From assembly GCA_043801155.1 (NCBI GenBank), contig JAZDMI010000021.1, positions 130,683 through 194,682 on the forward strand: a stretch of 64,000 bases of DNA. Direction: 5' to 3'. The stretch comes from Candidatus Gottesmanbacteria bacterium (lineage in GTDB: Bacteria; Patescibacteriota; Microgenomatia; JAMCYU01). The notes beneath the pieces are model-generated. The model searched no databases, was not told where the DNA came from, and worked only from the letters and a program-made list of their open reading frames with translations. Both the position numbers and the translations under genes were made by a program. This document shows, piece after piece, positions 9,371-44,200 of the stretch; position 1 is the first letter of the stretch; each line of letters starts with the position of its first letter.

Positions 9371-9775
9371 ATGTTTACACTTTCTAGTAAATCAGATTAT
9401 GGACTACTCCTACTAACATTATTAGCCGGTAGTCATAAAAACGAGTTTATACCATTATCAGATATTGCTGTAAAATCAGGTTTGCCTAAAGCTTATATTT
9501 CAAGAATTGCATCTGAATTGGCTAATGCCGGAATAATAAAGAGTAAAGAAGGACTTAATGGAGGGTATAAATTAGCTATACCCCCAGCAAAAATTACCAT
9601 TGCCCAGGTAACACAAATTCTGGATGGTCCGTGGCAACCGACTAAGTGTACCAGTAAGCAAAAAAAATGCTCATTGGAAAAAAATTGTCCGATGGCTGAC
9701 AACTGGCAAAATAGAATTAAAGCAAAAATGTGGAAAATAATGGATAGTTATACTTTAAAAGATTTAATGAGCTAA
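9371..9775 (+). CDS. Rrf2-family transcriptional regulator (IscR-like, with a 3-Cys cluster ligand set)
   Basis: Rrf2 HTH (SDYGLLLL...SDIAVKSGLPKAYISRIASEL) and C-x5-C-x5-C (KCTSKQKKCSLEKNC). It sits directly upstream of the suf genes. Confidence 0.8.
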   Translation: MFTLSSKSDYGLLLLTLLAGSHKNEFIPLSDIAVKSGLPKAYISRIASELANAGIIKSKEGLNGGYKLAIPPAKITIAQVTQILDGPWQPTKCTSKQKKCSLEKNCPMADNWQNRIKAKMWKIMDSYTLKDLMS

Positions 9776-9790
9776 TAAGCTCTTATACCT

Positions 9791-10501
9791 ATGTTAAAAA
9801 TTACTAATCTTTCAGTTTCGGTTGGGAATAAAAAAATTATTAATAATCTCTCTTTGGAAATTAGACCGGGTGAGCTTCATGTTCTTCTTGGTCCCAATGG
9901 TGCCGGAAAGACAAGTCTGGCTATGGCTTTGATTGGACACCCAAGTTATAAAATCGAAAATCAAATCTCGAAAATCAAAATTGACGATAAAGATTTAATC
10001 CATTTAACTACTGATGAACGCGCTAGGTTAGGGTTATTTAATTCGTTTCAAAAGCCGGTGGCTATTCCCGGAGTATCAGTAAAAGACCTTTTGAAATATA
10101 TAAAGATTAATAATCTTGAAGAAAAAATATCTAAGACTGGTAATCGTTTAAAGATCAAAGACGAACTTCTAACAAGATCTCTTAACGTAGATTTTTCCGG
10201 CGGCGAATTTAAAAAAATGGAACTTTTACAGGCTATGATAATTCAGCCAAAATATGTAATTTTAGATGAAATAGATAGCGGTTTGGATATTGATAATATT
10301 CATTTATTAGCCGATTTTCTTCAACAAATGACTCTTAAAAACATCGGGATTCTTTTAATCACCCATAATTTACGGATATTAAAATTTGTTAAACCGGACT
10401 TGATACATATTTTAATCAACGGTTCAATTATTAAAAGTGGAGGAGTCCAAATTGCCAGAGAAATTGAGAAGAGAGGATTTTCATGGTTAGTAAAAAATTA
10501 A
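9791..10501 (+). CDS. sufC: Fe-S cluster assembly ATPase SufC
   Basis: Walker A GPNGAGKTS, ABC-type fold, and suf operon context. Confidence 0.9.
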   Translation: MLKITNLSVSVGNKKIINNLSLEIRPGELHVLLGPNGAGKTSLAMALIGHPSYKIENQISKIKIDDKDLIHLTTDERARLGLFNSFQKPVAIPGVSVKDLLKYIKINNLEEKISKTGNRLKIKDELLTRSLNVDFSGGEFKKMELLQAMIIQPKYVILDEIDSGLDIDNIHLLADFLQQMTLKNIGILLITHNLRILKFVKPDLIHILINGSIIKSGGVQIAREIEKRGFSWLVKN

Positions 10502-11792: not shown

Positions 11793-13061
11793 TTGGCGTT
11801 GACAAATTTTATGTTAGATATACAAAAAATAAAACAGGACTTTCCTATCCTAAAAAGACAGATAAATGGAAAACAAATTGTCTATCTTGATTCCGGTGCG
11901 TCTTCCTTAAAGCCTTGTCAGGTAATTGAGGCGATGGATAAATATTATATAAATTATGGAGTGAATATCTTTCGTGGTATTTATCGACTATCGCAGGAGG
12001 CAACCGAAGAATATGAAAAGGCCCGTCAAAATGTGGCTAAATTTATTGGAGCAAAAGATCCAAGAGAAATAATTTTTGTCAGAAACGCCACTGAAGCTAT
12101 CAACTTAGTGGCTTATGCTTGGGGAAGAGCAAATATTGACGTGAGGAGTGAAATTGTTTGTACGGTTATGGAACATCATGCTAACTTGGTGACCTGGCAA
12201 CAGCTGGCACTGAAAAACAGTGCCACCATAAAATTTTTGGATATTGATGAAAATGGAAAACTAAAAATCAATCGCCATCAGGAAATAAATCTCGATAGCG
12301 TGATAACAGACAACACAAAACTATTAGCAATTACTTATGTCTCTAATGTTTTAGGAACAATAAATCCGCTTAAAGAAATTGTGAGAAAAACCAAAAAGAT
12401 TAACCCTAATTGTTTGGTTTTAGTTGATGGAGCACAAGCAATACCCCATATGAAAGTTGATGTTGAAGATTTAGGTTGCGATTTTTTTGCCTTTTCCGGA
12501 CACAAAATGCTCGGACCGATGGGAATTGGTGTTCTTTGGGGTAAATATGAATTATTAGATAAAATGCTGCCGTTCCAATTTGGGGGAGAAATGATTAGGG
12601 ATGTTTATCTGGAAAAAACGACCTTTGCTGATCCGCCACATAAATTTGAAGCGGGGACCCCCAATGTAGCTGGGGCTATCGGTTTGTCTGCTGCCATTGA
12701 TTATCTAGAGGGATTTGGTATGGAGAATATAAGACAACACGAGGTTGAAATAACAGAATACGGTTTAAATCAATTGAGCAATATAAAAGATTTGAAAATT
12801 TACGGTCCAGAAAAAGTAGAAGACCGGGGCGGAATTATTGCTTTTAATATTGATGGTATTCATGCTCATGATTTAGCCCAAATATTAGACGAGGACAATG
12901 TTTGTATCAGAAGTGGCCATCACTGTGCCATGCCATTGCATACCCGTTTGGGAATTCCCGGATCTGCCCGCGCCAGTTTTTATCTCTACAATACTAAGGA
13001 AGATATTGATAAATTAGTAGAAAGTTTAAAAAAAGCTAAAAAGATATTTAAAATATTATGA
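11793..13061 (+). CDS. sufS: Cysteine desulfurase SufS (PLP-dependent, class V aminotransferase fold)
   Basis: PLP-Lys motif SGHKMLGP and active-site Cys in RSGHHCA. Confidence 0.9.
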   Translation: MALTNFMLDIQKIKQDFPILKRQINGKQIVYLDSGASSLKPCQVIEAMDKYYINYGVNIFRGIYRLSQEATEEYEKARQNVAKFIGAKDPREIIFVRNATEAINLVAYAWGRANIDVRSEIVCTVMEHHANLVTWQQLALKNSATIKFLDIDENGKLKINRHQEINLDSVITDNTKLLAITYVSNVLGTINPLKEIVRKTKKINPNCLVLVDGAQAIPHMKVDVEDLGCDFFAFSGHKMLGPMGIGVLWGKYELLDKMLPFQFGGEMIRDVYLEKTTFADPPHKFEAGTPNVAGAIGLSAAIDYLEGFGMENIRQHEVEITEYGLNQLSNIKDLKIYGPEKVEDRGGIIAFNIDGIHAHDLAQILDEDNVCIRSGHHCAMPLHTRLGIPGSARASFYLYNTKEDIDKLVESLKKAKKIFKIL

Positions 13062-13090
13062 AATTGACTTTAAAATTAATACAATAAATC

Positions 13091-13226
13091 GGGCTGGCGG
13101 TAACGAATTTTTTCACCCCGCTTTGTCAAAGTTAAATTGTTGTTTAGTGCATTAGCACGAAGTTTTACACTTTGGAAAGACAGAATCATAAGTGCGGGGT
13201 TGTCAAAAATTGTTACGCGCCATCCC
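13091..13226 (+). repeat. Family-2 ~138-bp element with terminal inverted repeats (MITE-like), copy 1, located between sufS and sufU
   Basis: Aligns end-to-end with 21791-21928 and 26506-26643. The conserved core is GAATTTTTTCACyCC...AGTGCAyTAGCACGAAG...GyGGAGyTGTCAAAAATT...CGCGCCATCCC. Confidence 0.8.
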
Positions 13227-13244
13227 TTATTTTGCACTTTTATC

Positions 13245-13628
13245 ATGGATATTTATCGACAAAATATTTTAGATCATTATAAAAATCCGCGCAACTTTGG
13301 CCCTATGGAAAAACCTGATTCCTCACATGAGGAAGGTAATACTTTATGTGGAGATAAAATTAAAATAGAAATAAAATATAAATTAAAACCTGATAACGAA
13401 AAAACTATTGATGATATAAAATTTACCGGTGAAGGATGTGCTATTTCTTTGGCTAGTGCCTCTATGTTAACAGAGAAAGTTAAAGGAATGACTATAGAAG
13501 ATATTAAGAAATTGAGATATGATGATATTAAAGAAATGTTAGGAACGGATTTAAGTCCAGCTAGAATAAAATGTGCAACATTGGCCCTGCAAGTTTTACT
13601 TAAAACTATTGATCATTTAATATTGTGA
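13245..13628 (+). CDS. sufU: SufU/IscU-like Fe-S scaffold (the ORF-track start at 13137 is extended into the repeat; the start proposed here is at MDIYRQ)
   Basis: Three-Cys scaffold motifs (LCGD, GEGCAIS, KCATLA). The upstream 108 nt of the tracked ORF are repeat sequence. Confidence 0.75.
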   Translation: MDIYRQNILDHYKNPRNFGPMEKPDSSHEEGNTLCGDKIKIEIKYKLKPDNEKTIDDIKFTGEGCAISLASASMLTEKVKGMTIEDIKKLRYDDIKEMLGTDLSPARIKCATLALQVLLKTIDHLIL

Positions 13629-13664
13629 ATTGTTTCATTCCTTTATCTTGTATATAATTAATTT

Positions 13665-15371
13665 ATGTCAAAAAGCATGACTTGGAGAATTGGGGGAGAA
13701 GCGGGATTTGGAATTATGGCTTCCGGAGCTATTTTTGCTAAGGCTTTAACCAGAGCCGGGCTTTTTATTTCTTCAACAGTTGAATATCCTTCGCTTATCC
13801 GTGGCGGACACAATACATATATCGTTAGAGCAGGAGAAACAGAAATTTTTTCATTAGTTAAGCCAATTGATCTTTTAGTCGCCCTGAACCAAGAAACAAT
13901 TGATTTACATAAAGGTGAGTTATCCAAAGGTGCCGGTATTATTTATGATTCTCAGGACAAAACTATCATAACAGAAAATTTACCGGAAGAATGTAAATTG
14001 TTTGGTTTGCCGCTTTTAGAAATTGCTACTAAAGACGGCGGTAAAAAAATTATGATGAATAATGTGGCTTTGGGGGCAACCTGGGCTGTCGTTGATTTGC
14101 CATTTGAAATATTAAGCAGTGTCATTGCTGATAATTTTGCTAAAAAGGGAGAAGAAATTATCAAAGAAAATACCCAAGCTGCCAAGTCCGGATTTGAATA
14201 TATTAAGAATAACTATGCCAATGATTTTACTTATAAACTCGTTAGAGGAAAAGCAGCCGGAAGATTGGTATTAACTGGTAATGAAGCAATCGGACTGGCT
14301 GCTATTAAAGCAGGTTTAGGTTTTACTGCACTCTATCCGATGACACCGATTAACGGTTTGTTGCTTTACTTAGCTTCTCATCAACAAGAAGGAAATTATA
14401 TTTATTATCAACCAGAAGATGAGATAGCCGGAATTAATTCAGCGATAGGGGCATCATATTCGGGAAAACGCAGCTTAATAGCTACATCAGGTGGCGGTTT
14501 TGCTTTAATGAACGAAGGGTATGGTATGGCCGCTATGACCGAAACGCCACTCGTTGTAGTTATGGGTACAAGACCGGGTCCATCAAGCGGTTTACCAACA
14601 TGGACAGGTCAGGGAGATCTTAAGTTTCTCTTAAATGCTTCACCAGGTGATTTTATGAGGGTTATATTTGCACCTGGTGATCCAACCGAAGCTTATGAAT
14701 TAACTCAAATAGCGTTTAACCTAGCCGATAAATATCAAACACCGGTGATTCTTTTAGTTGATAAATTTTTATGTGAAAGCATCGGCACAGCGGATAAATT
14801 AAAAATTAAGAATTATGAATTAAAAATTGATCGGGGAAAAATGTGGGACAAAAAGGGAGAATACAAAAGATATGAATTAACTGATGATGGAATATCGCCG
14901 CGGGCACTCCCCGGACAATCTTACTTTATAACTAATTCTTATGAGCATGATGAATTTGGGTATTCAACTGAAGATGCAAAAACCATTCAGTCAATGGTTG
15001 ATAAACGCGGGAAAAAATATGAACTTTTAGCCAAAGAAGTCCCCGAACCACAAATTTTTGGTGATAAAGACGCTGACATTACTTTGGTTGGTTGGGGATC
15101 AACCAAGAACGCGGCGCGTGAAGTAGTAGGTAAAAAAATAAATTATTTGCACCTTAATTGGATAAATCCATTTCCGAAAGAGGTGGTGACCAGAATTTTA
15201 TCAAAAGCGAAAAAAGTTATTGATATTGAGGGAAATTCGACTGGTCAGATGGCCGCCTGGATAAGAGAACAAACCGGTATTGAAATTAAAGATAAAATAT
15301 TAAAATATGACGGCCGGCAATTTTATCCAGAGGATATTATTGAAGGAATAAAAAATTTACTTGGAAAATAA
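13665..15371 (+). CDS. korA: 2-oxoacid:ferredoxin oxidoreductase, alpha subunit (fused gamma-alpha type)
   Basis: POR/KOR alpha-subunit architecture (GNEAIGLAAIKAG..., TSGGGFALM), followed by the TPP-binding beta subunit. Confidence 0.8.
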   Translation: MSKSMTWRIGGEAGFGIMASGAIFAKALTRAGLFISSTVEYPSLIRGGHNTYIVRAGETEIFSLVKPIDLLVALNQETIDLHKGELSKGAGIIYDSQDKTIITENLPEECKLFGLPLLEIATKDGGKKIMMNNVALGATWAVVDLPFEILSSVIADNFAKKGEEIIKENTQAAKSGFEYIKNNYANDFTYKLVRGKAAGRLVLTGNEAIGLAAIKAGLGFTALYPMTPINGLLLYLASHQQEGNYIYYQPEDEIAGINSAIGASYSGKRSLIATSGGGFALMNEGYGMAAMTETPLVVVMGTRPGPSSGLPTWTGQGDLKFLLNASPGDFMRVIFAPGDPTEAYELTQIAFNLADKYQTPVILLVDKFLCESIGTADKLKIKNYELKIDRGKMWDKKGEYKRYELTDDGISPRALPGQSYFITNSYEHDEFGYSTEDAKTIQSMVDKRGKKYELLAKEVPEPQIFGDKDADITLVGWGSTKNAAREVVGKKINYLHLNWINPFPKEVVTRILSKAKKVIDIEGNSTGQMAAWIREQTGIEIKDKILKYDGRQFYPEDIIEGIKNLLGK

Positions 15372-15373
15372 GA

Positions 15374-16222
15374 ATGGAAGAAAAGTTAAATTTATCAACT
15401 ATACATAAACCAACCTGGTGTCCGGGATGTGGTAATTTTGGCATCTGGCAGGCTCTTAAAGATACCGTGAATAAATTAGGAGTTAATCCTAATGAGGTTG
15501 TAGCTGTGTATGATATCGGATGTAATAGTAACATGATGAATTGGTCTCCGGTGACTGCGTTTGAAAGTCTGCATGGGCGGACATTACCAGTCGCCACCGG
15601 AATTAAATTAGCCAATCCTAAATTAACAGTTTTAGCTATTGCCGGTGATGGTGGTTGTTATGGTGAGGGAGGAAATCATTTAATCCATGCAGCCAAAAGA
15701 AATCTAGATATTACACTTTTAGTTCATGATAACCAAATTTATGCCCTGACAGCTGGTCAAACCTCGCCAACTTCAGAAAAAGGCTTTAAAACTAAATCTA
15801 CTCCAGATGGTTCTATAGATGAGAAACTAAATCCATTAGCATTAGCTTTAGCTGCCGGAGCAACCTTTATCGCTCGTGGTTTTGCCGGTGATCTGCCTCA
15901 TTTAACTGATCTTCTTAGACAGGCAATTAATCATAAAGGATTTGCTATTGTTGATATCATGCAGCCTTGTGTTTCTTTTAATCCAATAAATACATTTGAT
16001 TGGTATAAGTCTAGAGTTTATAAACTAAATGAACTACAATATAATATAACGGATAAATTATCTGCTTTTGCGAAAGCTTTAGAATGGCCAGCGATAACTA
16101 AGGATAGTAAAATTCCTATTGGAATTTTGTATCAAAAAGAAGCAGCATCAGTTAATAATAAAGACCTAAAAACTGATAATAACAAATTAAATTTTGACGG
16201 TTTAATCCAAGAATTTTTGTAA
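15374..16222 (+). CDS. korB: 2-oxoacid:ferredoxin oxidoreductase, beta subunit (TPP-binding)
   Basis: CPGCG Cys motif and GDGG TPP motif (IAGDGGCYGEGGNH). Confidence 0.8.
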   Translation: MEEKLNLSTIHKPTWCPGCGNFGIWQALKDTVNKLGVNPNEVVAVYDIGCNSNMMNWSPVTAFESLHGRTLPVATGIKLANPKLTVLAIAGDGGCYGEGGNHLIHAAKRNLDITLLVHDNQIYALTAGQTSPTSEKGFKTKSTPDGSIDEKLNPLALALAAGATFIARGFAGDLPHLTDLLRQAINHKGFAIVDIMQPCVSFNPINTFDWYKSRVYKLNELQYNITDKLSAFAKALEWPAITKDSKIPIGILYQKEAASVNNKDLKTDNNKLNFDGLIQEFL

Positions 16223-16229
16223 ATTAAAA

Positions 16230-16913
16230 ATGAAAAGTAAGTCTGTCCTTTCACTTACACTAGCACTTTTTTTAATCAGCGGGCTATTGCTAATATTTAA
16301 AGAACAACTAGTCAATTCTTTTATTCCCCAACCAAAATTCTCTGAACTTGATAATCCGAAATTAGTCCAGACTATCAAAACACAATCAGGACAGTGGGAT
16401 ACGAATTTTAACCAGCCAATTTTCCTCAATGCACCTGTTTCTTTACCGGTCGCCGTTGTCGCCGATAGTAATGTTTTAGGCGTCGTTCAGGCACAGGGAG
16501 AAAAATGGATAGAGATCGATTTATCAGACCAAAAACTTTATGCCCATGAAGGAGATAATATTGTTTATACCTTTTTAGTTTCAACCGGTAAATGGGGAGC
16601 AACACCAATCGGTGATTTTCGCATCTGGGTAAAATTGCGTTATTCGACAATGAGCGGCGGAGACAAATCAATCGGAACTTATTATTATTTACCAAATGTT
16701 CCTTATGTTATGTTTTTCCACAATGCTTTTGCTCTTCACGGGACCTATTGGCATAATAATTTTGGTACACCAATGAGCCATGGGTGTGTCAATCTTTCAA
16801 CAATTGATGCGGGAAAACTTTATTATTGGACAGACCCTCCGGTTGAACCAGAAAAATCAGTTTTCCACCCTACTAAAGAATTTCCCGGAACCAGAGTCGT
16901 AGTTCATGAGTAA
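16230..16913 (+). CDS. L,D-transpeptidase (YkuD domain), membrane-anchored
   Basis: Catalytic HGC motif (SHGCVNLS) with a preceding conserved His, and an N-terminal signal/anchor. Confidence 0.8.
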   Translation: MKSKSVLSLTLALFLISGLLLIFKEQLVNSFIPQPKFSELDNPKLVQTIKTQSGQWDTNFNQPIFLNAPVSLPVAVVADSNVLGVVQAQGEKWIEIDLSDQKLYAHEGDNIVYTFLVSTGKWGATPIGDFRIWVKLRYSTMSGGDKSIGTYYYLPNVPYVMFFHNAFALHGTYWHNNFGTPMSHGCVNLSTIDAGKLYYWTDPPVEPEKSVFHPTKEFPGTRVVVHE

Positions 16914-16995
16914 AATAAATGACAACTGATTACGGTGATTTTCCTCCTTGACATTTAGCACTTAGTGTGCTAGACTGCTAACCACTTTACAATAT

Positions 16996-19458
16996 ATGGC
17001 AGTTATACTAGATACATCAAAATCTAATAATCTTCAAAATCAGGATAAAATCGTCCCCGTGGTCGCGTTACGAGATGGCGTAGTCTTTCCAGCTACCGAA
17101 GTAGTTTTGACGTTTGGCAGACCAAAATCATTAACCGCTATTGAGGCAGCTTTTTCTCATGAAAAATTAGTCGCCTTGGTTATGCAAAAAAATCCCAATA
17201 CCAATGAACCAGAACCAGAAGATCTAAATAAAATCGGAACCCTCGCTGTCGTCGAACGAATGTTAAAAAGTGATGGAGAAATTAACGCTTTGGTTAAAGG
17301 TTTCAGTCGAATTGAGATTAAAGAGTATCCCCAAACAGAACCTTTCCTTTTAGGTAAAGTAGAACAACTTCCTGATGAACTGGAAGTCTCTGACGAAATT
17401 ACCGCTCTTTCTAATCATCTTGCCTCAGAACTTAAAAGAGCCGTGAATTTAGGCAAGGCCGTTGATTTTTTAGTTTTTATGAATATTATGTCAGGTCTTC
17501 CCCCTCAAGACTTAGCTAATCAAATTGCCGGGACACTCGAAATTAAACCGAGTGAAAAACAGGAATTATTGGAAATTAATAGTGTTAAAGTAAAACTTAC
17601 TAAAATTGGAGATTATTTAGCTCACGAAACAAAAATTTTAGAAATTGAAAGGAAAATTAGTAGTAAAACTCAAGAAAGATTCGATAAGAATATTCGTGAA
17701 CAAGTTCTCCGGGAGAGACTTAAAACAATCACCAAGGAACTCGGCGAGGATGATGAGAATAAAGATATTAAAGAATTATCCGATAAGATTAAGAAGGCCG
17801 GGATGCCAAAAGATATCGAGGAAAAAGCCGAAAAAGAACTCTCGCGTTTAGCGCAAATGACACCTCTTAATCCTGAGGCCTCTTATGTTAAAACGTATCT
17901 CGATTGGCTAGTTGATTTACCTTGGGCAATTGCCTCACCGAATAATGTTGATATTATTACAGCGCAAAAAATTCTTGACGAAGATCATTTTGGCTTAAAA
18001 AAGATAAAAGAACGTATTATTGAGTTTTTAGCAGTCATGAAATTAAAAACAGCCAGGGATAAAAAGGATATAAAAACAGAAATTAAATCAAAAAGCATTA
18101 GTCCGACAATACTTTGTTTTGTCGGGCCACCCGGAGTGGGTAAAACATCTATTGGTAAATCTATTGCTCGGGCACTGGGTCGAAAATTTGTCAAAATCTC
18201 TCTTGGTGGTATTCGAGATGAAGCAGAAATAAGAGGACATAGGAGAACTTATGTTGGAGCTATGCCCGGAAGGATCATACAAAGTATTAAACAGGCAGGA
18301 ACAAAAAATCCTGTTTTTATGATGGATGAGATCGATAAGGTAGGCACAGATTTTAGGGGTGATCCTTCAGCCGCACTACTTGAAGCATTAGATCCTGAAC
18401 AAAATCATGCATTCTCGGACCATTATTTAGAAGTACCTTTTGATTTATCGGATGTCTTTTTTATAACTACCTGTAATGTTTTAGATACAATTCCTCCGGC
18501 TTTACGAGATCGATTGGAAATTATTCATTTTCCCGGTTATACCGAAGATGAGAAATTTCATATAGGTAAAGATTACCTGATTAAGAAACAATTAGAGATT
18601 CATGCTCTTCCGTCTAATTTGGTTGAGATAACTGATACCGGTCTTCATACAATAATTCAACGTTATACGCGTGAAGCTGGGGTAAGAAGTTTAGAAAGAG
18701 AAATTGCCTCAGTCTTTCGTAAGGTGGCTAAAGAAGTAGCCGAAGGGCGTAGAAATAAGATTAAGGTAACCCCAAAATCATTATCAGAATTTTTAGGCCC
18801 GACGAAGTTTACATCGTCTTTAGCAGAAAAGAAAGACGAGATTGGTATGAGTACGGGACTCGCTTGGACCGAGGCTGGCGGAGAAATTCTTTTTATTGAA
18901 GTAGCCTTAATGCCGGGTAAAGGTAATCTTACTCTGACAGGTCAGTTGGGAAACGTGATGAAGGAATCTTGTCAAGCCGCCTTATCATATATTCGTTCAC
19001 GAGCTGAACAGTTAAGTTTGTCAGATAAATTTTACCAAAAGACTGATATTCATGTACATGTACCAGAGGGGGCAGTCCCAAAGGATGGGCCAAGTGCCGG
19101 GATTGCGATTGCCACAGCGATTACGTCAGCTTTAACTAAAATTCCGGTGAAAAAAGATATTGGTATGACTGGCGAGATTACTCTGCGCGGCCGAGTTTGG
19201 GAAATTGGTGGGGTAAAAGAAAAAATCATTGCTGCCCACCGAGCTGGATTAAAAATCATTATTTTACCTAAAAATAATAAGAAAGACCTTGAAGACATCC
19301 CAAAAAATGTTCTTAGTGATTTAAAATTTATCTTTGTTGAAAATATGGATCAAGTTTTAAAAGTAGCACTTAAGAAAAGTTTACCGAAAACCGTTAATAA
19401 AGAATTTAGTTTTAATCAACCTACTAAACACCTAATTCATCTGCCGATCGCATCATAA
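16996..19458 (+). CDS. lon: ATP-dependent Lon protease
   Basis: Lon N domain, AAA+ Walker [10 protein letters not shown], and proteolytic Ser in [10 protein letters not shown]. Confidence 0.95.
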
Positions 19459-19461
19459 AAT

Positions 19462-20412
19462 TCAATTCTGAGTGCTAAAATCAAACACTTCTTTTGAAAT
19501 TTGTGCCATTGTTTTAAGCGCAATATCCTGATTATTAATATCAGAAGTAAAAATTCCAAAAATATATGGGTGGTCAGGCAAATTAATAATACCAACATCA
19601 TGAAGTCCGCCGACATAGTCTCCGGTTTTGTGATAAATCTTTATATCTATAGGTAATAGAGCCGGGATTCGATTTTCGAAATCACTATCATCCATAAACC
19701 CAATCATTTCTGTTGTTAATGCTTGATTAGTAATTTCTCCCTGGTACATTTTTCGAAGTAAGGTAATCATATCTATTAACGATGATTGGTCGTTTTCCAT
19801 ACTTGTTTGTGATAAACCCCAACTATCAATTAATTGTTGAATTCGATCAAGCCCAATTACATGTCGTCCTAGAATAAAAGCAGCGGTATTGTCAGATTTT
19901 TCCATCATTAATCGAGCCAGAGTTTTAATTGAATAAGTAGACCCCGGTGGATCATAACGAATAGAACCTGTGCCGTAATCTTGGATATCAGCTTTTTGAA
20001 GTGTAATTTTTTCTTCAAGATTAATTTCACCTTTATCAGCTAAATAATAAAGGCTTGCCAGGATAGGAATTTTATTAACCGAGGCAGCATTAAATATCAT
20101 GGTTTGGTTAATACCGAAGTTCTGGTTAGTGGTCAGATCATAATAATAGATCGCCCAGGTACCAGCCATAGGTTCAATTATTTCTTTTATTCTTAAAATA
20201 AGCGATTGGGAATCTTTTGGTTTATCTGTAAAAAAAGAAATAATCGTCTCTGGCAGAGGAGAAATAATAATCTGGTTCTTATTAGAATACCTTTTAAAAA
20301 ATCCCAAGATAGACAGCGCCATAAAAGCAATAAAAATTATTTTAACTATTATATCATGAGATTCAGCTGGTTTTTTCTGTAATGGATTAATATTCGGTCC
20401 GTAATCTTGCAT
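19462..20412 (-). CDS. Class A beta-lactamase-family serine hydrolase, membrane-anchored
   Basis: SxxK (SVNK), the hallmark SDNTAA, and KTG (HKTGDY). N-terminal TM segment. Confidence 0.65.
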   Translation of the reverse strand: MQDYGPNINPLQKKPAESHDIIVKIIFIAFMALSILGFFKRYSNKNQIIISPLPETIISFFTDKPKDSQSLILRIKEIIEPMAGTWAIYYYDLTTNQNFGINQTMIFNAASVNKIPILASLYYLADKGEINLEEKITLQKADIQDYGTGSIRYDPPGSTYSIKTLARLMMEKSDNTAAFILGRHVIGLDRIQQLIDSWGLSQTSMENDQSSLIDMITLLRKMYQGEITNQALTTEMIGFMDDSDFENRIPALLPIDIKIYHKTGDYVGGLHDVGIINLPDHPYIFGIFTSDINNQDIALKTMAQISKEVFDFSTQN

Positions 20413-20603
20413 GGGGTCAGTTTAACAAATTCAGTTAAAGATTTGAAGTCGATTATTTAAAACAGAGAATAATTAGAGAGAAAATCAATTACGAATATTG
20501 AAGGAAATCAACAATGCAAAACTTCGAATCCTGTAGGGGTTATCGAATTACAGGATAGAATTTCGAGGCTAATTCTTGCTTGTACCCCGTGCCGAATTTG
20601 GGA

Positions 20604-21005
20604 CTAAAAAAATTCCTTGGGGTCGTAATTTAAATCACTTTTTGGTGGATCGTCATATCTATTAACTGGTGATCTGACACATGCATAAAATTTACCAGGT
20701 TGGAGAACAGAACATATCTCAGGTTTTTGGTTTACCGGTGGAGTTTTACCCTCTAAGCTACACTTGCCTGTTTCTAGATCAATTTGGGGACAAGGTCCAT
20801 GAATGCTGATTTGCATAAACCGTTTTCCGTCCTTTGTTTTAACAACATTTACCAGTTCAACATTTTTACTGTCTTTAAAATGCAAGTCAAATTCGGAAGG
20901 TGTTACCTCAAACACAATGTCATAGCAACATGGAGCTTGTCTCTTTTTATTATCAACGACTACTTGACAATTAAAACAAGGGTTTTCTTCATTCCAGGTA
21001 CTCAT
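20604..21005 (-). CDS. Cys-rich hypothetical protein (133 aa, 9 Cys), starting 2 nt after the 3' end of tRNA-Glu
   Basis: The ORF-track version (to 21083) runs through the tRNA. It is trimmed here to the first Met outside the tRNA (MSTWNEENPCFNC...). Confidence 0.4.
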   Translation of the reverse strand: MSTWNEENPCFNCQVVVDNKKRQAPCCYDIVFEVTPSEFDLHFKDSKNVELVNVVKTKDGKRFMQISIHGPCPQIDLETGKCSLEGKTPPVNQKPEICSVLQPGKFYACVRSPVNRYDDPPKSDLNYDPKEFF

Positions 21006-21007
21006 AG

Positions 21008-21081
21008 TACCGCCAGCCGGATTCGAACCGGCGATTTTCAGGATGAGAACCTGATGTCCTAGGCCACTGGACGATGGCGGC
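21008..21081 (-). tRNA. tRNA-Glu (anticodon CUC)
   Basis: The reverse complement folds as a cloverleaf: acceptor GCCGCCA/TGGCGGT, Glu-like D-arm GTCC-AGTGGCCTA-GGAC, anticodon stem TCAGG/CCTGA with loop TTCTCAT, and T-arm GCCGG-TTCGAAT-CCGGC. Confidence 0.75.
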
Positions 21082-21194
21082 AACTACATATTCCGCGCTT
21101 CAAAATCCCGAGCTTCCGCTAGCTGGCGGAGCGAGCGTGAATTGAAGCAAGGAAAAAGGAATATGTGGACTTATTTTACTCTATATTTTTCTTC

Positions 21195-21223
21195 TTGACA
21201 AATAAGCCTAATTTGAGTAAAAT
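21195..21223 (+). promoter_or_regulatory. Sigma70-type promoter (TTGACA-17 nt-TAAAAT) for the greA leader
   Basis: Consensus -35, a 17-nt spacer and a near-consensus -10, all read directly. Confidence 0.55.
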
Positions 21224-21244
21224 ATGGTATTACTTTCAGTTAAA

Positions 21245-21277
21245 AAGCCCCTTTTTGGTAACGGGCTTCTTTTTTTA
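21245..21277 (+). terminator. Intrinsic terminator in the greA leader (AAGCCC-loop-GGGCTT plus a T9 run), ~30 nt before the greA start
   Basis: GC stem followed by CTTTTTTTTT, lying between the promoter and the greA ATG. Confidence 0.55.
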
Positions 21278-21309
21278 AGTAGACACTTAGGCAGATTAAA
21301 GGAGATTAC

Positions 21310-21780
21310 ATGAATAACAATCAAAACGTTCTTCTAACTCGTGATGGGTTAAATGAACTTAAAAGTGAATATGACGAACTGGTGAATGTTAAGAGACCAG
21401 CCGCTGTTACACGGATGGCACAGGCACGAGATTTAGGTGATTTAGCCGAAAATAGTGAATATACAGCTGCTAGGCAAGATTTAGCTTTTATCGATGGTCG
21501 GATAGTTGAACTTGAAGAAATCTTACATGAAGCTAAGATTATTTCAAAGTCAAACTGCCCAAAAGGCAAAGTTGATCTTGGTTGTAAGGTTACTCTTCAT
21601 ATAGATGGTAAAAAAGAAGTATTTACCATTGTTGGAGAGTGGGAAGCCGATCCTAGCAATAAGAAAATTTCTCATGCTTCGCCCCTAGGACAAGCTCTTT
21701 TAGGTAAGAAAGTAGGAGAAAAAGTAGAAGTTGAAGCCCCGGTTGGGAAAATTATCTATACGATTGTTGAGATAGAGTAG
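21310..21780 (+). CDS. greA: Transcription elongation factor GreA
   Basis: GreA N-terminal coiled-coil (LTRDGLNELKSEYDEL) and a C-terminal FKBP-like domain. Confidence 0.9.
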   Translation: MNNNQNVLLTRDGLNELKSEYDELVNVKRPAAVTRMAQARDLGDLAENSEYTAARQDLAFIDGRIVELEEILHEAKIISKSNCPKGKVDLGCKVTLHIDGKKEVFTIVGEWEADPSNKKISHASPLGQALLGKKVGEKVEVEAPVGKIIYTIVEIE

Positions 21781-21790
21781 TTTTTATAGA

Positions 21791-21928
21791 GGCTGTTGGC
21801 TACGAATTTTTTCACTCCACACTGTCTTCGAGTAGGTTATTGTTTTGGTGCACTAGCACGAAGACCATTCGATTATAATGTAATTGCCAAAAATGTGGAG
21901 CTGTCAAAAATTATAGCACAACATCCTC
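21791..21928 (+). repeat. Family-2 ~138-bp TIR element, copy 2 (intergenic, greA-lysK)
   Basis: Aligns with copies 1 and 3. Confidence 0.8.
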
Positions 21929-21962
21929 AATAGATATAAGTTTGATTAATGACTTTTAATGT

Positions 21963-21991
21963 TTGCCTCTAAAAGTCTTACAAGGTATAAT
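21963..21991 (+). promoter_or_regulatory. Sigma70-type promoter (TTGCCT-17-TATAAT) for lysK
   Basis: Perfect -10 with 17-nt spacing, ~10 nt before the ORF. Confidence 0.45.
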
Positions 21992-21999
21992 CTACGTGT

Positions 22000-23529
22000 A
22001 TGTATTGGGCTGATAAAATTGCGCAAGAATTTAAAAAGAGACACCTTCCGCTTGAGTGGGTTGATGATATGAAAACGCCTTCGGGGTTTGCCCACATGGG
22101 TTCTCTTCGGGGTCCGGTTACTCATAGTTTAGTTTATCGAGCATTACAGGATGTAGGTCTGAAAGTAAAATTTACCTTTGTCATTAACGATTTTGACCCT
22201 GCTGATGAACTTCCACCGGAATTTAAAGAAACATTAAAAGATTATCTTGGTTTCCCCTTACGGAAAGTTCCCAGTCCCAATAAAAAGTATGATAGTCTTG
22301 GTAGTCTGATTGCTCAGGATTTTATAACATCCTTTAGAACTTTAGGCGTCGAGGCGGAAATATTATCATCTTGGGATATGTATCATCAGGGGAAATTTGA
22401 CAATGTTATAAAAATTGCCCTTGATAATTCAGGGAAAATCCAAGATATTTATCGTCAAGTCAGCGGAAGCCAAAAAAAGGAAAGCGGATGGTTGCCTTTT
22501 CAGGTAGTTTGTCAAAAATGCGGTAAGCTAGGAACAACCAAAGTTACCGACTGGGATGGCAAAGAAGTGACTTATGAATGTTTACCTGACTTAGTTAAAT
22601 GGGCAAGCGGCTGCGGATATAAGGGAAAAGTTTCTCCGTTTGGCGGTTCAGGTAAATTACCCTGGAAAGTTGATTGGCCAGCCCATTGGAAGGTGATCGG
22701 TGTGACTTGTGAGGGAGCCGGTAAAGATCATGGATCAGCCGGAGGTTCTTATGATATTGCTTTAAAGCTTTGTGATAAAGTTTTTAAATATCCCAGTCCT
22801 TTTAAATTTGTTTATGAATTTTTTCTGCTTGGTGGCCAAAAAATGTCTTCTTCAAAAGGAATAGGATTTAAAGCTCATGACTTAATTGGAATATTACCTC
22901 CTAATGTGGCTCGATTTTTATTTGTTAGAACTGATTATCAACAGGCAATTAATTTTAATCCTGATGGGTATACGATTCCTAATTTATTTGATGAATATGA
23001 TCGTTGTGCTAAAGAATTTTTTGCCAAAGGCCGAAAGTCAGATTTCGGTAGAAGTTATGAACTTTCCCAAACTAATCCAAAACAACCGGAAAAATTTGTT
23101 GATATTCGTTTTCGCCAAATTGCTCAGTTGATACAGATGCCTAATATGGCAGGTAAAATAAAGAATAACCCACAGCTTGTAGAAAGAGCAAAATATGCAA
23201 AGATATGGCTTGAAAATTTCGCTCCTGAAAGTGAAAAATTCAGCATTAAAAATGATTTACCAAATGAAGTAAAAAAACTGAATCAAACCCAAAAGCTTCT
23301 TTTAAAAAGAATCACTGCTGAAATTGATAAAAAATGGGAAGCAGAAGATTTTCAAAAGGAAATATATAATTGGGGAAAAGAATTAGGATTATCCTCCGGA
23401 GAAACTTTTCAAACTATTTATCTTTCTCTTATCGGTAAAGATCATGGTCCCAAAGCTGCGTGGTTGATATTATCTTTGGATAAAGAATTTGTAAAAACAA
23501 GATTTGAAGAAGTAGCTAATCAAAAATGA
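22000..23529 (+). CDS. lysK: Lysyl-tRNA synthetase, class I (archaeal-type LysK)
   Basis: Class I-type motif region (PSGFAHMGSLRG) and the characteristic KMSSSKG motif. Confidence 0.7.
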   Translation: MYWADKIAQEFKKRHLPLEWVDDMKTPSGFAHMGSLRGPVTHSLVYRALQDVGLKVKFTFVINDFDPADELPPEFKETLKDYLGFPLRKVPSPNKKYDSLGSLIAQDFITSFRTLGVEAEILSSWDMYHQGKFDNVIKIALDNSGKIQDIYRQVSGSQKKESGWLPFQVVCQKCGKLGTTKVTDWDGKEVTYECLPDLVKWASGCGYKGKVSPFGGSGKLPWKVDWPAHWKVIGVTCEGAGKDHGSAGGSYDIALKLCDKVFKYPSPFKFVYEFFLLGGQKMSSSKGIGFKAHDLIGILPPNVARFLFVRTDYQQAINFNPDGYTIPNLFDEYDRCAKEFFAKGRKSDFGRSYELSQTNPKQPEKFVDIRFRQIAQLIQMPNMAGKIKNNPQLVERAKYAKIWLENFAPESEKFSIKNDLPNEVKKLNQTQKLLLKRITAEIDKKWEAEDFQKEIYNWGKELGLSSGETFQTIYLSLIGKDHGPKAAWLILSLDKEFVKTRFEEVANQK

Positions 23530-24113
23530 TTAATCGTGAAGATGCTTTAAATTTCATTAAGAATAAAGTTCCACAGGAAAATATTGTTAAACATATGTTA
23601 GCTTGTGAGGCTTTAATGGGAGGAGTTTATGATCATCTATTAGGCAAAGGAGTAGATGATTTAGGAGGAACGAAGGAAGAATGGATGATTGCAGGACTTA
23701 TTCATGATGGTGATTATTGTCCTGATGTATCAGTAGATAAACAGGGTATACAGATTGTTGAGTGGTTAAAAGAAGCCGGATACGATATTCATAATAATGT
23801 TGCTCAAACAACTGCTAGCCATAATTGGCATAATACAGGTAATGAGCCAAAGAGTTTAATGGATTGGGCGCTTTTTTGCGGAGATACACTGACAGGATTA
23901 ATAGTGGCGACAACTCTAGTTAGACCGGAAAGAAAACTGGCATTAGTAGAAGTTGACTCGGTTATGAAAAAATTTAAAGATCCATCATTTGCGGCGGGAA
24001 CTAGAAGAAACGATATCAAATTATGTGAAGAAAAATTAAGTCTACCATTGGAGAGATTTATCGATATTGGTTTAAAATCAATGCAGGGGATAAGTAATAA
24101 ACTGGGTTTATAA
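23526..24113 (+). CDS. HD-domain phosphohydrolase
   Basis: H...HD...D metal-binding pattern (KHMLACEAL...LIHDGDY). Confidence 0.55.
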   Translation: MINREDALNFIKNKVPQENIVKHMLACEALMGGVYDHLLGKGVDDLGGTKEEWMIAGLIHDGDYCPDVSVDKQGIQIVEWLKEAGYDIHNNVAQTTASHNWHNTGNEPKSLMDWALFCGDTLTGLIVATTLVRPERKLALVEVDSVMKKFKDPSFAAGTRRNDIKLCEEKLSLPLERFIDIGLKSMQGISNKLGL

Positions 24114-24146
24114 TTCTATAATATTCATATAAAGATAGGAGAAAAA

Positions 24147-24440
24147 ATGGCCGGAGAAAATGAATTACATTCTAATCAGGTAGAAGCAACAGTCCAAAAG
24201 GGAGAAAGTGGTAAATTCTTTGTTGAACGATCAATAAATCCAGGACCTCAAAGTGTAATTGTTATACAAGAGGAAAAAGCCTCAGATATGATCCAAACTC
24301 CTGGTAGGTTAACAGCAAGGGATATTGGGAGTGTTCTTATGGATATTCTCAATGAAGGAAAAACCATACAAGCATTTCAAATTACCTTAGGGGTCTCTGG
24401 AGGAACTAGCGGTGCAGTTATTGTTGTAAACAATAAATGA
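24147..24440 (+). CDS. Hypothetical protein (97 aa)
   Basis: Intact ORF with an AGGAG-like RBS, coupled to the downstream rdgB. Confidence 0.35.
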   Translation: MAGENELHSNQVEATVQKGESGKFFVERSINPGPQSVIVIQEEKASDMIQTPGRLTARDIGSVLMDILNEGKTIQAFQITLGVSGGTSGAVIVVNNK

Positions 24441-25051
24441 AACGTCTTCTTATTGCCACCACAAATCCTGGTAAACTCACAGAAATCAAATTTTTTCTGA
24501 AGGAAATACCCATAAAACTAGTCAGTCTTACCGATTTAGGAATAAAAGATAAGGTTGAGGAAGATGGAAAGACTTTCGAAGAAAATGCTAGAAAGAAAGC
24601 AATTTATTATTGTAAGATTTCCGGAATACCAACTATTGCCGACGACGGGGGATTAGAAATCGATTATTTAAACGGTGAACCGGGAGTAAAATCTCACCGA
24701 TGGATTGATAATAAAGTAAATTCAGACGAGGAGTTAATAAAATATACTTTGGAAAAATTAAAAGGATTACCGTTTGATAAACGGGGGGCACAACTGCGTA
24801 CTGTTATCGCGTTAACCATTCCCAATGGGTCTACCTTTATCAGTGAAAGTATTATTAGAGGTGTAATTTCTGAAAAAGCAGCATCATTTCGAACCCCGGG
24901 TTTTCCTTATCGTTCTCTACTTTACTTGCCCGAGTCAGGAAAATTTTATCACCAGGACGATTTAACAGAAGAAGAAAATATAAAATATAACCACCGAGGT
25001 AAAGCCCTTAGGAAATTAAAAAGAATTATTAAAGAAAAAGTGTTAAAATAA
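24437..25051 (+). CDS. rdgB: Non-canonical purine NTP pyrophosphatase (RdgB/Ham1, ITPase)
   Basis: ATTNPGKLTE and DDGGLEIDYLNGEPGVKSHRW motifs. Confidence 0.8.
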   Translation: MKRLLIATTNPGKLTEIKFFLKEIPIKLVSLTDLGIKDKVEEDGKTFEENARKKAIYYCKISGIPTIADDGGLEIDYLNGEPGVKSHRWIDNKVNSDEELIKYTLEKLKGLPFDKRGAQLRTVIALTIPNGSTFISESIIRGVISEKAASFRTPGFPYRSLLYLPESGKFYHQDDLTEEENIKYNHRGKALRKLKRIIKEKVLK

Positions 25052-25126
25052 GTCCAGGTATTCCTTTTTTCTTGCCTCATTCAAGCCTGATTGTGAATCA
25101 GGCGTTCTGAGGGGCGAAATAAAAAA

Positions 25127-26362
25127 ATGTTAGATATTAATTTAATTAGAGAAAATCCGGAAAAAATAAAAAAAGGAATTGCTGACAAAGGTTATTCTGT
25201 TGATTTAGTGGATGATCTTTTAATACTTGATAAAAAACATCGAGAACTCATTGGCGAAATTGAGGAATTGCGGGCAAAAAGAAATCAGGTAGCCAAAGAA
25301 AAAAATATCGAAGAAGGTAAAAAAATAAAATCAGAACTTCGCAAGAGAGAACCCGAGCTAGAAAAATCAGAAAAAGAACTTTTAGACAAGTTACAGATAA
25401 TTCCTAATCCTCCGGCTGATGGCGTTCCTTTTGGAAAAGGTGAAGCGGAGAATGTTGAAATAAAAAAATGGGGGACTCCAAGAAAATTTGACTTTACCCC
25501 AAAAGACCATTTGGAATTAGGAACATCTCTTGGTATTTTGGATTTTGATTCGGGAGCCAAAGTATCCGGGGCGAATTTTTATTTTTGGCTTAAAGCAGGT
25601 GCGCTTTTGGAATTAGCACTTATTCGTTATGCTTTCGATGTTTTATCTAAAGAAGGATTTACACCAATTATTACTCCTGACCTGGTTCACTCGCGTTATT
25701 ATCTGGGAACTGGTTATATGCCAAAAGGTAACGAAGCTCAGACATATACAATTGAAGGTGAAGATCTGGGATTAATTGCTACTGCCGAAGTAACATTAGC
25801 CGGGAGACATGCAGATGAAATAATTCCGGAAGAAAAATTACCGATAAAATATATTGGTTATTCTCATTGTTTCCGCAAAGAGGCAGGATCGTATGGAAAG
25901 TATGCTAAAGGTTTGTATCGAGTTCATCAATTTACAAAAGCAGAGATGTTTATATATTGTTTACCGGAAGAATCAGAAAAATATCATCAACATATTTTGG
26001 CCATGGAAGAAAAGATTTATCAAGGGCTTGGGTTACCCTACCGAGTTTTACAAATGTGTACCGGTGATTTGGGAGCAATGGCAGCTAAGAAATATGATAT
26101 TGAAGCTTGGATGCCCTGTCGAGGTGAATATGGTGAAGTTACATCAACCTCAAATTGCACTGATTACCAAGCAAGAAATTTAAACATAAAATTTAAAAGA
26201 AAAAATGGTCAGATGGAATTTATTCACATGTTGAACGGAACAGCGATTGCCACATCAAGAACCCCCCTAGCAATTTTAGAAAATTATCAGCAAAAAGACG
26301 GTAGTGTTTTAATTCCTGAGGTGCTTCGTGAATATATCGGATTTGAAAAAATTTCTCCCTAA
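25127..26362 (+). CDS. serS: Seryl-tRNA synthetase
   Basis: SerRS N-terminal coiled-coil (MLDINLIRENPE) and class II catalytic core motifs. Confidence 0.9.
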   Translation: MLDINLIRENPEKIKKGIADKGYSVDLVDDLLILDKKHRELIGEIEELRAKRNQVAKEKNIEEGKKIKSELRKREPELEKSEKELLDKLQIIPNPPADGVPFGKGEAENVEIKKWGTPRKFDFTPKDHLELGTSLGILDFDSGAKVSGANFYFWLKAGALLELALIRYAFDVLSKEGFTPIITPDLVHSRYYLGTGYMPKGNEAQTYTIEGEDLGLIATAEVTLAGRHADEIIPEEKLPIKYIGYSHCFRKEAGSYGKYAKGLYRVHQFTKAEMFIYCLPEESEKYHQHILAMEEKIYQGLGLPYRVLQMCTGDLGAMAAKKYDIEAWMPCRGEYGEVTSTSNCTDYQARNLNIKFKRKNGQMEFIHMLNGTAIATSRTPLAILENYQQKDGSVLIPEVLREYIGFEKISP

Positions 26363-27104
26363 AACTCTTATTAAGATAAATTCTCCGATTAATGGCGAAA
26401 TTTCTGTTATTGAACAATTCGGGAAAAGAAAAATTATGGTTGGTGGTTTAACACAATCTGGTCCTATGGCAGAAAAAATCTGGGAAGACGCTATAAAAGA
26501 AATATGGGCTGGCGGTGATGAATTTTTTCACTCCACGTTGTCAGGTTGTGAACCAGAGACTAGTGCACTAGCACGAAGACAATCTTTACCCAGAGACATT
26601 GCCATAAGGAGTGGAGCTGTCAAAAATTATCACGCGCCATCCCAAGGAAATAAAATACTACTTTTGGGAGTTGGGGGAGGATCTTTAGTTAAATTACTTA
26701 ATAAATATTTCCCAGATGCAAAAGTTATTGGTGTAGAAATAGATTCACTAATGATTAATTTAGGAAAAAAATATTTGGAATTAGAAAAGGCAAAAAATTT
26801 TGAAATTATTATTGACGATGCAGAAAACTATGTGCAGTCCTCTATAAACTATAAGCAAAATTTCGATTTAATTTTTGTTGATATGTACAAAGGAGATAAA
26901 GTTCCAGAGAATTTGGAAAATATAAATTTTTTACAAAATTTAAAAAATATTTTATCAATAAATGGCCTAGTTATTTTTAATCGTCTGTACTATAAAAATC
27001 ACATTTTTGAAGCAAATATTTTTCTTGACAAATTGAAGAAAATATTTAATGATTTAAGATGTAAAAAGATTTACACAAATATTTTCTTATATTGTAAAAA
27101 ATAA
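26328..27104 (+). CDS. Spermidine-synthase-like class I SAM-dependent methyltransferase carrying a 46-codon in-frame repeat insertion
   Basis: Rossmann motif I LLLGVGGGS...VIGVEID. A family-2 repeat lies in-frame between the N-terminal domain and the MTase fold. Confidence 0.55.
   Translation: MNISDLKKFLPKTLIKINSPINGEISVIEQFGKRKIMVGGLTQSGPMAEKIWEDAIKEIWAGGDEFFHSTLSGCEPETSALARRQSLPRDIAIRSGAVKNYHAPSQGNKILLLGVGGGSLVKLLNKYFPDAKVIGVEIDSLMINLGKKYLELEKAKNFEIIIDDAENYVQSSINYKQNFDLIFVDMYKGDKVPENLENINFLQNLKNILSINGLVIFNRLYYKNHIFEANIFLDKLKKIFNDLRCKKIYTNIFLYCKK
26506..26643 (+). repeat. Family-2 ~138-bp TIR element, copy 3, inserted in-frame inside a CDS
   Basis: Aligns with copies 1 and 2. Translated stop-free as ...AGGDEFFHSTLSGCEPETSALARRQSLPRDIAIRSGAVKNYHAPSQ. 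Confidence 0.8.
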
Positions 27105-27277
27105 TAGTTCTTCCTAATTATATTTTAGAGGAACTGAACACTGTAAAATTTTAGAAACGATTTTACAGTGTAGAGGAGGTGAACTGTCCATGGCAAAGAA
27201 AAAAAAGAAGAGAAAGTAAAAATCTTGCAATTGAGTTTGTATTAAAACTTTTTCTTGCTGCAAGAAAAAACTGCCCA

Positions 27278-27315
27278 GCCCGCCAAAAATATTTTATTTA
27301 GGCGGGTTTTGGTTT
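27278..27315 (+). terminator. Intrinsic terminator-like hairpin (GCCCGCC-loop-GGCGGG-TTTTGGTTT), ~40 nt upstream of secA
   Basis: GC stem plus T-rich tail. Confidence 0.45.
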
Positions 27316-43311: not shown

Positions 43312-43602
43312 ATGAAACTATTTATCGATACCGGAGATAATACGAAAACCATTGTTGGTTTAGATAATATTAGGTTAGAAAAGCCGACTGGACCGGATAA
43401 GTCACAGCAAGTCTTGGTTTTGATTGACCAATTACTTAAGGAAAACCATAAGCAGATTAAAGATATTACTGATATAGTAGTAAATATTGGTCCCGGTTCC
43501 TTTACCGGGCTTAGGGTCGGAATAACCGTGGCTAATACTTTAGCCTGGGTATTGAAAGTTTCGGTTAACGGAAAAGTAGCGGTTGAACCTCACTATGATT
43601 AA
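43312..43602 (+). CDS. tsaB: TsaB-like protein, N-terminal-domain-only (96 aa)
   Basis: YeaZ-like N-terminal motif GPGSFTGLRVG; lacks the C-terminal half. Confidence 0.5.
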   Translation: MKLFIDTGDNTKTIVGLDNIRLEKPTGPDKSQQVLVLIDQLLKENHKQIKDITDIVVNIGPGSFTGLRVGITVANTLAWVLKVSVNGKVAVEPHYD

Positions 43603-44200
43603 AAAATTACTATTTTTAACTCCATTATTAATATTAATCCTGTTTCTATACGGTGAAATAATTAAAAAAGAACTTGCTTATTGGTCTGATGACTTATGGG
43701 GGCAAAAACATTCTCTTGATAGTTCTTCCCAATGGCCTGAATCAGGAGTTATTCCGATTACGCCCATTAATAGAGATTTTTGTCTGGTGATTCCAAAAAT
43801 TAATCTAAATTCAGCCATAGTTAGTATAAATTCTGAAAATACTCCAGAGAATTTAACCGTGTTAAAGCAAGGATTGATACACACCAGGGAGAGTGCTTTT
43901 CCTGACCAAAGAGGACCAATTATAATTCTTGCCCATCTCCCTGATAATATTGTAAATTTATTGCATACCAATGTTTCATCATATCTATTTAATAAAATAG
44001 TTATTAATGACGAAATTGACTTATTTTACCTTAGTAAAAGGTATAAGTATTATGTTACCTATAAGATAATATTATCTACTGAAGATACAAAGGCCTATAT
44101 TAATAGTATCCAGAACAAGGATGTTTTAATATTACAAGCTTCCTATCCCCCAATATTACCATTTAAAAAATTGCTGATAATAGCTGATAAACAGAACTAA
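43583..44200 (+). CDS. Sortase paralog with the catalytic Cys replaced by Ser (TLxTC -> LILQAS) and Arg->Lys
   Basis: Aligns throughout with the sortase at 50894-51493. The catalytic His region is retained (IIILAH), but the C->S and R->K changes fall at the catalytic positions. Confidence 0.55.
   Translation: MNLTMIKKLLFLTPLLILILFLYGEIIKKELAYWSDDLWGQKHSLDSSSQWPESGVIPITPINRDFCLVIPKINLNSAIVSINSENTPENLTVLKQGLIHTRESAFPDQRGPIIILAHLPDNIVNLLHTNVSSYLFNKIVINDEIDLFYLSKRYKYYVTYKIILSTEDTKAYINSIQNKDVLILQASYPPILPFKKLLIIADKQN

Follow-up and report, generated by a model that had tools for sequence, protein, structure and literature searches.

A repeat element of 136-138 nt occurs in three copies, all on the + strand, in the 64-kb window analysed here (the whole stretch of DNA under study, from a Candidatus Gottesmanbacteria metagenome-assembled genome). 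Two copies occupy unrelated intergenic spacers, and the third lies in frame inside a gene for a spermidine-synthase-like methyltransferase. The element is best explained as belonging to a family of small palindromic repeats that are non-coding and confined to this Gottesmanbacteria lineage, and we consider it probable that it is a non-autonomous repeat of the RPE/MITE kind, one copy of which is tolerated, and probably translated, in a permissive linker. According to this explanation the family would spread in a transposition-like manner, with copies settling in spacers and in one gene, and one copy would have inserted where the N-terminal β domain of the methyltransferase is linked to its Rossmann domain. 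The gene would stay intact because the insert is a multiple of three, is stop-free in its phase and falls in a structurally permissive linker, and the element would then be read through as a disordered loop of ~46 residues. Complementarity of the arms would be kept since the hairpin is needed for spread or stability, either as single-stranded DNA or a cruciform recognised by a mobilising enzyme, or as RNA.

The repeat family and its hairpin

Copy 1 (13091-13226, + strand, 136 nt) is intergenic and is positioned 30 nt past the stop codon of a class V aminotransferase (cysteine desulfurase-like) gene and 18 nt ahead of the ATG of a NifU-like gene. Copy 2 (21790-21927, + strand, 138 nt) is also intergenic, with greA (stop at 21780) on one side and lysS, the gene for a class I lysyl-tRNA synthetase (start at 22000), on the other. 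This spacer measures 219 nt with the element in the window versus 61 nt without it in the syntenic locus L006 (GCA_040961635.1), which holds a classical terminator where the window has copy 2. Copy 3 (26506-26643, + strand, 138 nt) is contained within the methyltransferase gene. An independent repeat search of the window returned the boundaries of all three copies in register; the ends of copy 3 are uncertain by ~1-2 nt, and whereas exact excision of 26506-26643 creates a TAA codon, excision of 26505-26642 leaves the frame open (...EIQGNK...).

Any two of the three copies agree at 66-72% of positions overall, the arms being more alike (71-87%) than the interior (58-61%), and their GC content is 39-49% (49% for copy 3), compared with 36% for the window. 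Three blocks are invariant in all copies: GAATTTTTTCAC, GTGCAYTAGCACGAAG and TGTCAAAAATT. The 16-mer core GTGCAYTAGCACGAAG occurs three times in the window versus 0.03 expected by chance, and the 25-nt 5' arm three times versus 0.00 expected. Each copy carries imperfect terminal inverted repeats of ~26-31 nt, in which the 5' arm (GGGCTGGCGGTGATGAATTTTTTCAC) matches the 3' arm (GGGATGGCGCGTGATAATTTTTGAC) read as its reverse complement. In copy 3 the 5' arm (26506-26536, + strand, GGGCTGGCGGTGATGAATTTTTTCACTCCAC), which holds the invariant block GAATTTTTTCAC, pairs with the 3' arm (26611-26643, + strand, GTGGAGCTGTCAAAAATTATCACGCGCCATCCC), which holds TGTCAAAAATT. Between them, within the poorly conserved interior, is an invariant central motif (26563-26578, + strand, GTGCACTAGCACGAAG) composed of a 4-bp mini-hairpin (GUGC/GCAC) with the loop AYUA, followed by GAAG. 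The covariance model derived from the three copies gave copy 3 a score of 150.7 bits and found no fourth copy in the window or in the related loci L006-L010.

Every copy folds as one long bulged hairpin closed by its ends, with free energies of -48.1, -41.1 and -46 kcal/mol (z -5.5, -3.5 and -3.8) for copies 1, 2 and 3, respectively, and after correction for GC few 140-nt segments anywhere in the window fold as strongly as copies 1 and 2. The stem model placed on the three-sequence alignment comprises a 27-pair outer stem and the 4-pair central mini-hairpin. In the outer stem 8 of 27 pairs differ among the copies, in every case through a compensatory change on both sides and never on one side only. 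Examples of changes on both arms are TAAC/GTTA, CTAC/.TAG, TGAT/ATCA and GGCG to GTTG. In this model 98.9% of cells are paired, a level that none of 500 shuffles reaches, and sliding the partner by 1-3 columns reduces pairing to 35-50%. As the test draws on no more than three sequences, one of which supplied the structure, the covariation is indicative rather than proof, but the lack of one-sided changes despite ~30% divergence is striking. Compensation at all eight variable pairs, at 66-72% identity, exceeds what would be expected if selfish DNA were decaying passively, and it suggests that the hairpin is under selection or is being homogenised.

These features also bear on a different reading, which we regard as rather unlikely, namely that the element is not so much selfish DNA as a structured nucleic acid with a function in the transcript. 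The stem of ~27 bp with its central hairpin would then, for example, direct RNase III-type processing, stabilise the transcript or bind a protein, tuning or uncoupling the expression of neighbouring genes, and copy 3 would modulate expression of the methyltransferase gene. Purely compensatory stem variation, a central motif held invariant in a poorly conserved interior and the replacement of a classical terminator by copy 2 relative to L006 are consistent with such a role, as is the G-U pair at alignment columns 15-124, which is kept in all three copies and corresponds to a C-A mismatch on the other strand. All three copies are also in the sense orientation relative to flanking genes, though this carries little weight because nearly all genes of the window are on the + strand. 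Strand asymmetry of folding gives no clear signature of RNA: the + and - strands fold about equally well, so that folding does not distinguish an RNA hairpin from a DNA hairpin. Furthermore, the region 13000-27300 yielded no match to the element in Rfam 15 at gathering thresholds, nor at the permissive threshold of E up to 5, scans for promoter and terminator consensus sequences found nothing specific to the element, and no U-tract follows the hairpin. The contexts of the copies (in an operon, between operons and in coding sequence) are too different for a single cis-regulatory role. This reading partly overlaps with that of a tolerated palindromic repeat, and domesticated repeats can do both.

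A second repeat family was observed in the same part of the window, in the form of a 36-nt sequence that is present at 21143-21178 (+) and, inverted, at 25044-25079, with 89% complementarity. Each of its copies adjoins a GC-rich hairpin, one copy being next to tRNA-Glu and the other in the spacer upstream of serS, and few places in the window have local folds as strong as those of these two regions.

The in-frame copy and its host methyltransferase

The host gene (26328-27104, + strand) is a 258-codon ORF that begins with a GTG at 26328, overlaps the end of serS by 35 nt and encodes a SAM-dependent methyltransferase-like protein with a spermidine-synthase fold, including the segment ...AIKEIWAGGDEFFHSTLSGCEPETSALARRQSLPRDIAIRSGAVKNYHAPSQGNKILLLGVGGGS... 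The protein matches Spermine_synth and several methyltransferase Pfam families, and its model groups with spermidine synthases and METTL13 in Foldseek. The gene has been deposited as MFH0864147.1 (222 aa, on a contig of 272,544 bp), which was called from M37; orthologues align from the GTG at 26328, so the deposited model probably lacks the first β strands. Copy 3 runs from base 2 of codon W60 to base 1 of Q106, that is, 46 codons with no stop, and encodes residues ~60-106 (WAGGDEFFHSTLSGCEPETSALARRQSLPRDIAIRSGAVKNYHAPSQ).

An AlphaFold2 model computed on the family alignment has a mean pLDDT of 85 and a pTM of 0.83. Confidence is high (pLDDT >90) in the N-terminal β domain and in the Rossmann domain, and low (pLDDT <50) at residues 63-79 and 81-95. 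The insert is positioned after the helix formed by residues 46-60 and before the first Rossmann strand (residues 109-113), so that a flexible excursion at the domain boundary, compatible with function, is predicted. The first-pass annotation of this DNA had described 26506-26643 as a stop-free, in-frame repeat element of 46 codons, situated between the N-terminal domain and the Rossmann fold of a spermidine-synthase-like methyltransferase. The coordinates, the translation and the three copies in register agree with that description, the Pfam and Foldseek matches and the retained family motifs bear out the identity of the host, and the model places the insert as a low-confidence loop between two confidently folded domains.

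The same annotation had raised the possibility that the gene is a recent pseudogene, inactivated by the insertion, in which stops have not yet accumulated. A 46-residue unstructured insert directly before the SAM-binding strand could disturb function, and the NCBI model, starting at M37, is without N-terminal strands that are found in orthologues. Nonetheless, the protein keeps 23 of 23 invariant and 29 of 29 nearly invariant columns of the family, including the GxGGGS and acidic SAM-binding motifs, its 258-codon frame is open in a genome of 36% GC, and both domains are modelled at pLDDT >90. Copy 3 differs from its sister copies by 28-32%, and if this divergence arose in place, a dead gene would have been expected to gain frameshifts or stops. 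Orthologues with other linker inserts are likewise intact. Inactivation of the gene is therefore highly improbable.

The open frame is a property of this copy and not of the family. Read in the methyltransferase frame, copy 1 contains two stops and copy 2 one, interior indels shift the frame, and only two of the nine combinations of copy and phase leave a host frame open. Given these stops, the 136-nt length of copy 1 and the few open phases, the element is not a coding palindrome by design, and the in-frame state of copy 3 is best explained by selection removing disruptive insertions. What copy 3 conserves with its sister copies is nucleotide sequence and structure, not peptide sequence.

Methyltransferase homologues number 583 at E <= 0.001, the close ones being mostly of 205-235 aa. 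Of the 26 orthologues that were aligned, 24 show nothing at the insertion point beyond a short, variable linker, and the remaining two have unrelated large inserts. The nearest relative of the window gene (P0013, at locus L010) lacks the insert. Searched against 1.84 billion cluster representatives, the 47-residue insert peptide had no relative; its two matches (E ~1e-4) are attributed to chance because they are to tandem-repeat proteins, with many weak matches summing. A composite of the open frames of the three copies, run against an index of 5.8 billion clusters, retrieved only the protein itself; the two libraries searched were drawn from ~15 billion proteins. The same 46 residues are thus absent from the aligned orthologues; their presence there, conserved as amino acids, would have refuted the first-pass view that the segment is an inserted repeat, and that view is supported. 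In the neighbouring proteins GreA, LysRS, Ham1, SerRS and SecA, comparison of the window with L006 showed no internal indel of more than 6 residues.

We see scarcely any likelihood that the 46 residues are instead a genuine ancestral segment of the protein, or an insert removed at the RNA level like an intron. Linker length does vary across the family, and long bulged stems superficially recall excised intervening sequences. However, the same DNA is found twice in non-coding spacers, its peptide is without homologues and the segment is missing from the nearest relatives. At 138 nt it is far below the size of group I or group II introns, and Rfam gave no ribozyme or intron match. A stop-free length that is a multiple of three fits selection on a translated insert and would be needless if the insert were spliced.

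Between serS and the methyltransferase gene L006 has an extra ORF of 237 aa (9284-9997) with no Pfam match, which is absent from the window. On the other side of the methyltransferase gene, the gap before secA (27175-27315 in the window) contains a strong Shine-Dalgarno sequence (GGAGGTG), a 9-codon mini-ORF (27190-27219, MAKKKKKRK*), a hairpin (TTTTCTTGCTGCAAGAAAA) and then a terminator-like CCCGCC...GGCGGGTTTT. The arrangement is kept at L006 10908-11040 (MAKKRKKRK*) and at L008 920-1035 (MAKKKKKKR*), and it may act on secA as a leader peptide or attenuator, or may specify a tiny basic protein.

Hairpins in the linkers of orthologous genes

Unrelated hairpin inserts of 35 to ~170 nt were found in the same linker of six of the seven orthologues inspected at the DNA level; the exception is L010. 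Counting the window's own gene, seven of eight genes carry a hairpin-forming linker insert, in a sample that was chosen after the fact, and the inserts (138 nt, 93 nt, ~130 nt plus a solo arm, ~57 nt twice, 40 nt and 35 nt) represent at least four unrelated sequence families. The insert of P0012 (L006 10245-10342) is a 93-nt hairpin (dG -34.9, z -4.5), and that of P0002 (L007 580-762) is a hairpin of ~130 nt (z -3.05) with an extra solo 3' arm. These two have 23 identical nucleotides in common (GCTGAGGTCGGCACGAAAATTTT). L009 (399-461) and L011 (225-285) have in common a hairpin of ~57 nt, and L008 (343-384) and L012 (351-394) a palindrome of 35-40 nt (TTGACAAA...TTTG(T/G)CAA). A sliding 60-nt fold is strongest at the linker in the genes of L009, L011 and L012, though not in that of L008.

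Within pairs the inserts are conserved or co-varying in nucleotides and not in amino acids. The L009/L011 hairpin is 85% identical in nucleotides, compared with 58% identity for the proteins, and its stem changes are co-ordinated, CCGAAC/GTTCGG in one corresponding to CTGAAA/TTCAG in the other. Such nucleotide conservation (83-85%) in orthologous linker hairpins whose amino acids are not conserved, together with co-ordinated changes, also speaks for the reading of the element as a functional structure. The distribution of the inserts does not track the gene tree: by neighbour joining, the three genes with large inserts are not sisters, and each has a nearest relative that is free of an insert.

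A common superfamily of the window element and the P0012 and P0002 inserts was considered, as their ACGAA(A/T)(A/T)TTTT...AAAATT motifs are similar. It was rejected, since neither the covariance model nor blastn connects the orthologue inserts with the window family, and we claim no homology between them.

The recurrence of linker hairpins suggests something site-specific, beyond a model of random insertion plus tolerance. The pattern could have arisen from repeated independent insertion, from decay of long elements by internal deletion, or from a selected hairpin. We raise only tentatively the idea that the inter-domain linker has long been a hotspot for palindromic DNA, or that a nucleic-acid hairpin is under selection there, and consider it on the whole improbable. 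If it held, elements may home to pre-existing palindromes; alternatively, a hairpin at the domain boundary may be functional, for example as a processing or pausing signal, or palindromes may be self-maintained by intra-strand templated repair.

Two further features of these genes were recorded. P0012 has a second lineage-specific in-frame insert near its N-terminus (L006 10040-10118, RNLLFADAKRIFFCQFFQARKICQ), the ends of which are partly inverted-repeat-like by eye. In L008 one palindrome arm (345-357, TCTTGACAAATTA) is identical to a conserved FLDKL-coding segment ~430 nt downstream (777-789), whose counterpart in the window is at 27023-27034; the identity is either due to chance or a hint of intragenic templated copying.

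Proposed spread of the element and its relation to known palindromic repeats

Empty sites are represented by the orthologue linkers, by the nearest relative at L010 and by the syntenic greA-lysS spacer of L006, though with only 65-69% identity in the methyltransferase protein the L006 and L010 relatives do not allow precise empty sites to be defined. The 30-nt flanks of the three copies contain no consistent direct repeat of the kind expected for a target-site duplication, no solo arm or longer element with the element's arms was found anywhere in the window, and none of the 15 window ORFs scanned is a transposase. We also scanned for the exact pattern AATTTTTTCACN{20,45}GTGCANTAGCAC in GTDB species representatives, JGI metagenomes and IMG/VR. 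The 185,579 GTDB species-representative genomes, among which the source genome is apparently not included, gave two chance matches (a Pseudomonas and a Chitinophagales contig), the JGI metagenomes gave three, all judged to be chance on inspection, and IMG/VR gave none. Since these scans returned chance matches only, the case for mobility is made solely by the distribution of the copies, from which a transposition-like spread appears plausible. The known copies number only three, all within 13.6 kb (13091-26643) and on one strand, with none in the other 50 kb of the window.

In-frame palindromic repeats are a classic oddity of Rickettsia, and we know of none in the Candidate Phyla Radiation. 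A limited literature search found no such elements described for the Candidate Phyla Radiation/Patescibacteria, which is not proof of novelty. For RPE-1 to RPE-10, the palindromic elements of Rickettsia (Ogata et al. 2000, 2002, summarised in PMC10969869), one fixed frame encodes a conserved peptide and nearly half of the copies are intragenic, and RPEs in particular are among the documented in-frame intragenic MITEs (PMC10969869). The first-pass annotation had drawn an analogy with these elements, which stands for behaviour and fails for membership. As in Rickettsia, palindromic repeats of ~100-150 bp occur both between genes and in frame within unrelated housekeeping genes of a small, reduced genome, the host proteins remain intact and their fold is predicted to accommodate the insert. 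Unlike the RPEs, the element has no conserved peptide in a fixed or consistently open frame (the frame is open in one copy only) and has one of its three known copies in a gene; its host belongs to a different phylum, within the Candidate Phyla Radiation/Patescibacteria. The likeness is one of behaviour, not of demonstrated sequence relationship.

Bacterial MITEs and related repeats (ERIC, Correia/NEMIS, RUP, BOX and QMITE1) also resemble the element, being ~130 bp long with imperfect terminal inverted repeats that form a long hairpin (PMC10969869, PMC3184786, PMC2229807). They likewise lack coding capacity, occur as multiple dispersed copies and are occasionally intragenic and in frame. The window element differs from them in having neither a target-site duplication nor an identifiable parent insertion sequence, in its very low known copy number, and in arms that co-vary between copies in place of one consensus inverted repeat. 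REP/BIME sequences, which are mobilised by REP-associated tyrosine transposases, share with it the form of intergenic hairpin repeats in the same transcriptional orientation with a maintained structure (PMC3733652). However, REPs are 20-40 nt long, high-copy and extragenic, with a GTAG or CGTC tag at one end (PMC3733652), whereas the element is 136-138 nt long, starts with GGGCTGG, has no GTAG/CGTC tag and has one intragenic copy.

A tolerated repeat of this kind would represent a Rickettsia-like phenomenon in a very different reduced genome, in which selfish or structural DNA joins a protein by way of a permissive linker. Compensatory stems and recurring linker hairpins together offer a tractable system for weighing selection against self-templated repair and site-specific insertion. 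In practical terms, the element misleads gene callers and inflates the apparent novelty of proteins in metagenome-assembled genomes. Elsewhere in the window (43583-50887), a sortase-domain gene is followed by a gene for a 2203-aa protein with SpaA/SdrD-B prealbumin-like repeats, which is probably a sortase-anchored surface or pilus-like protein.
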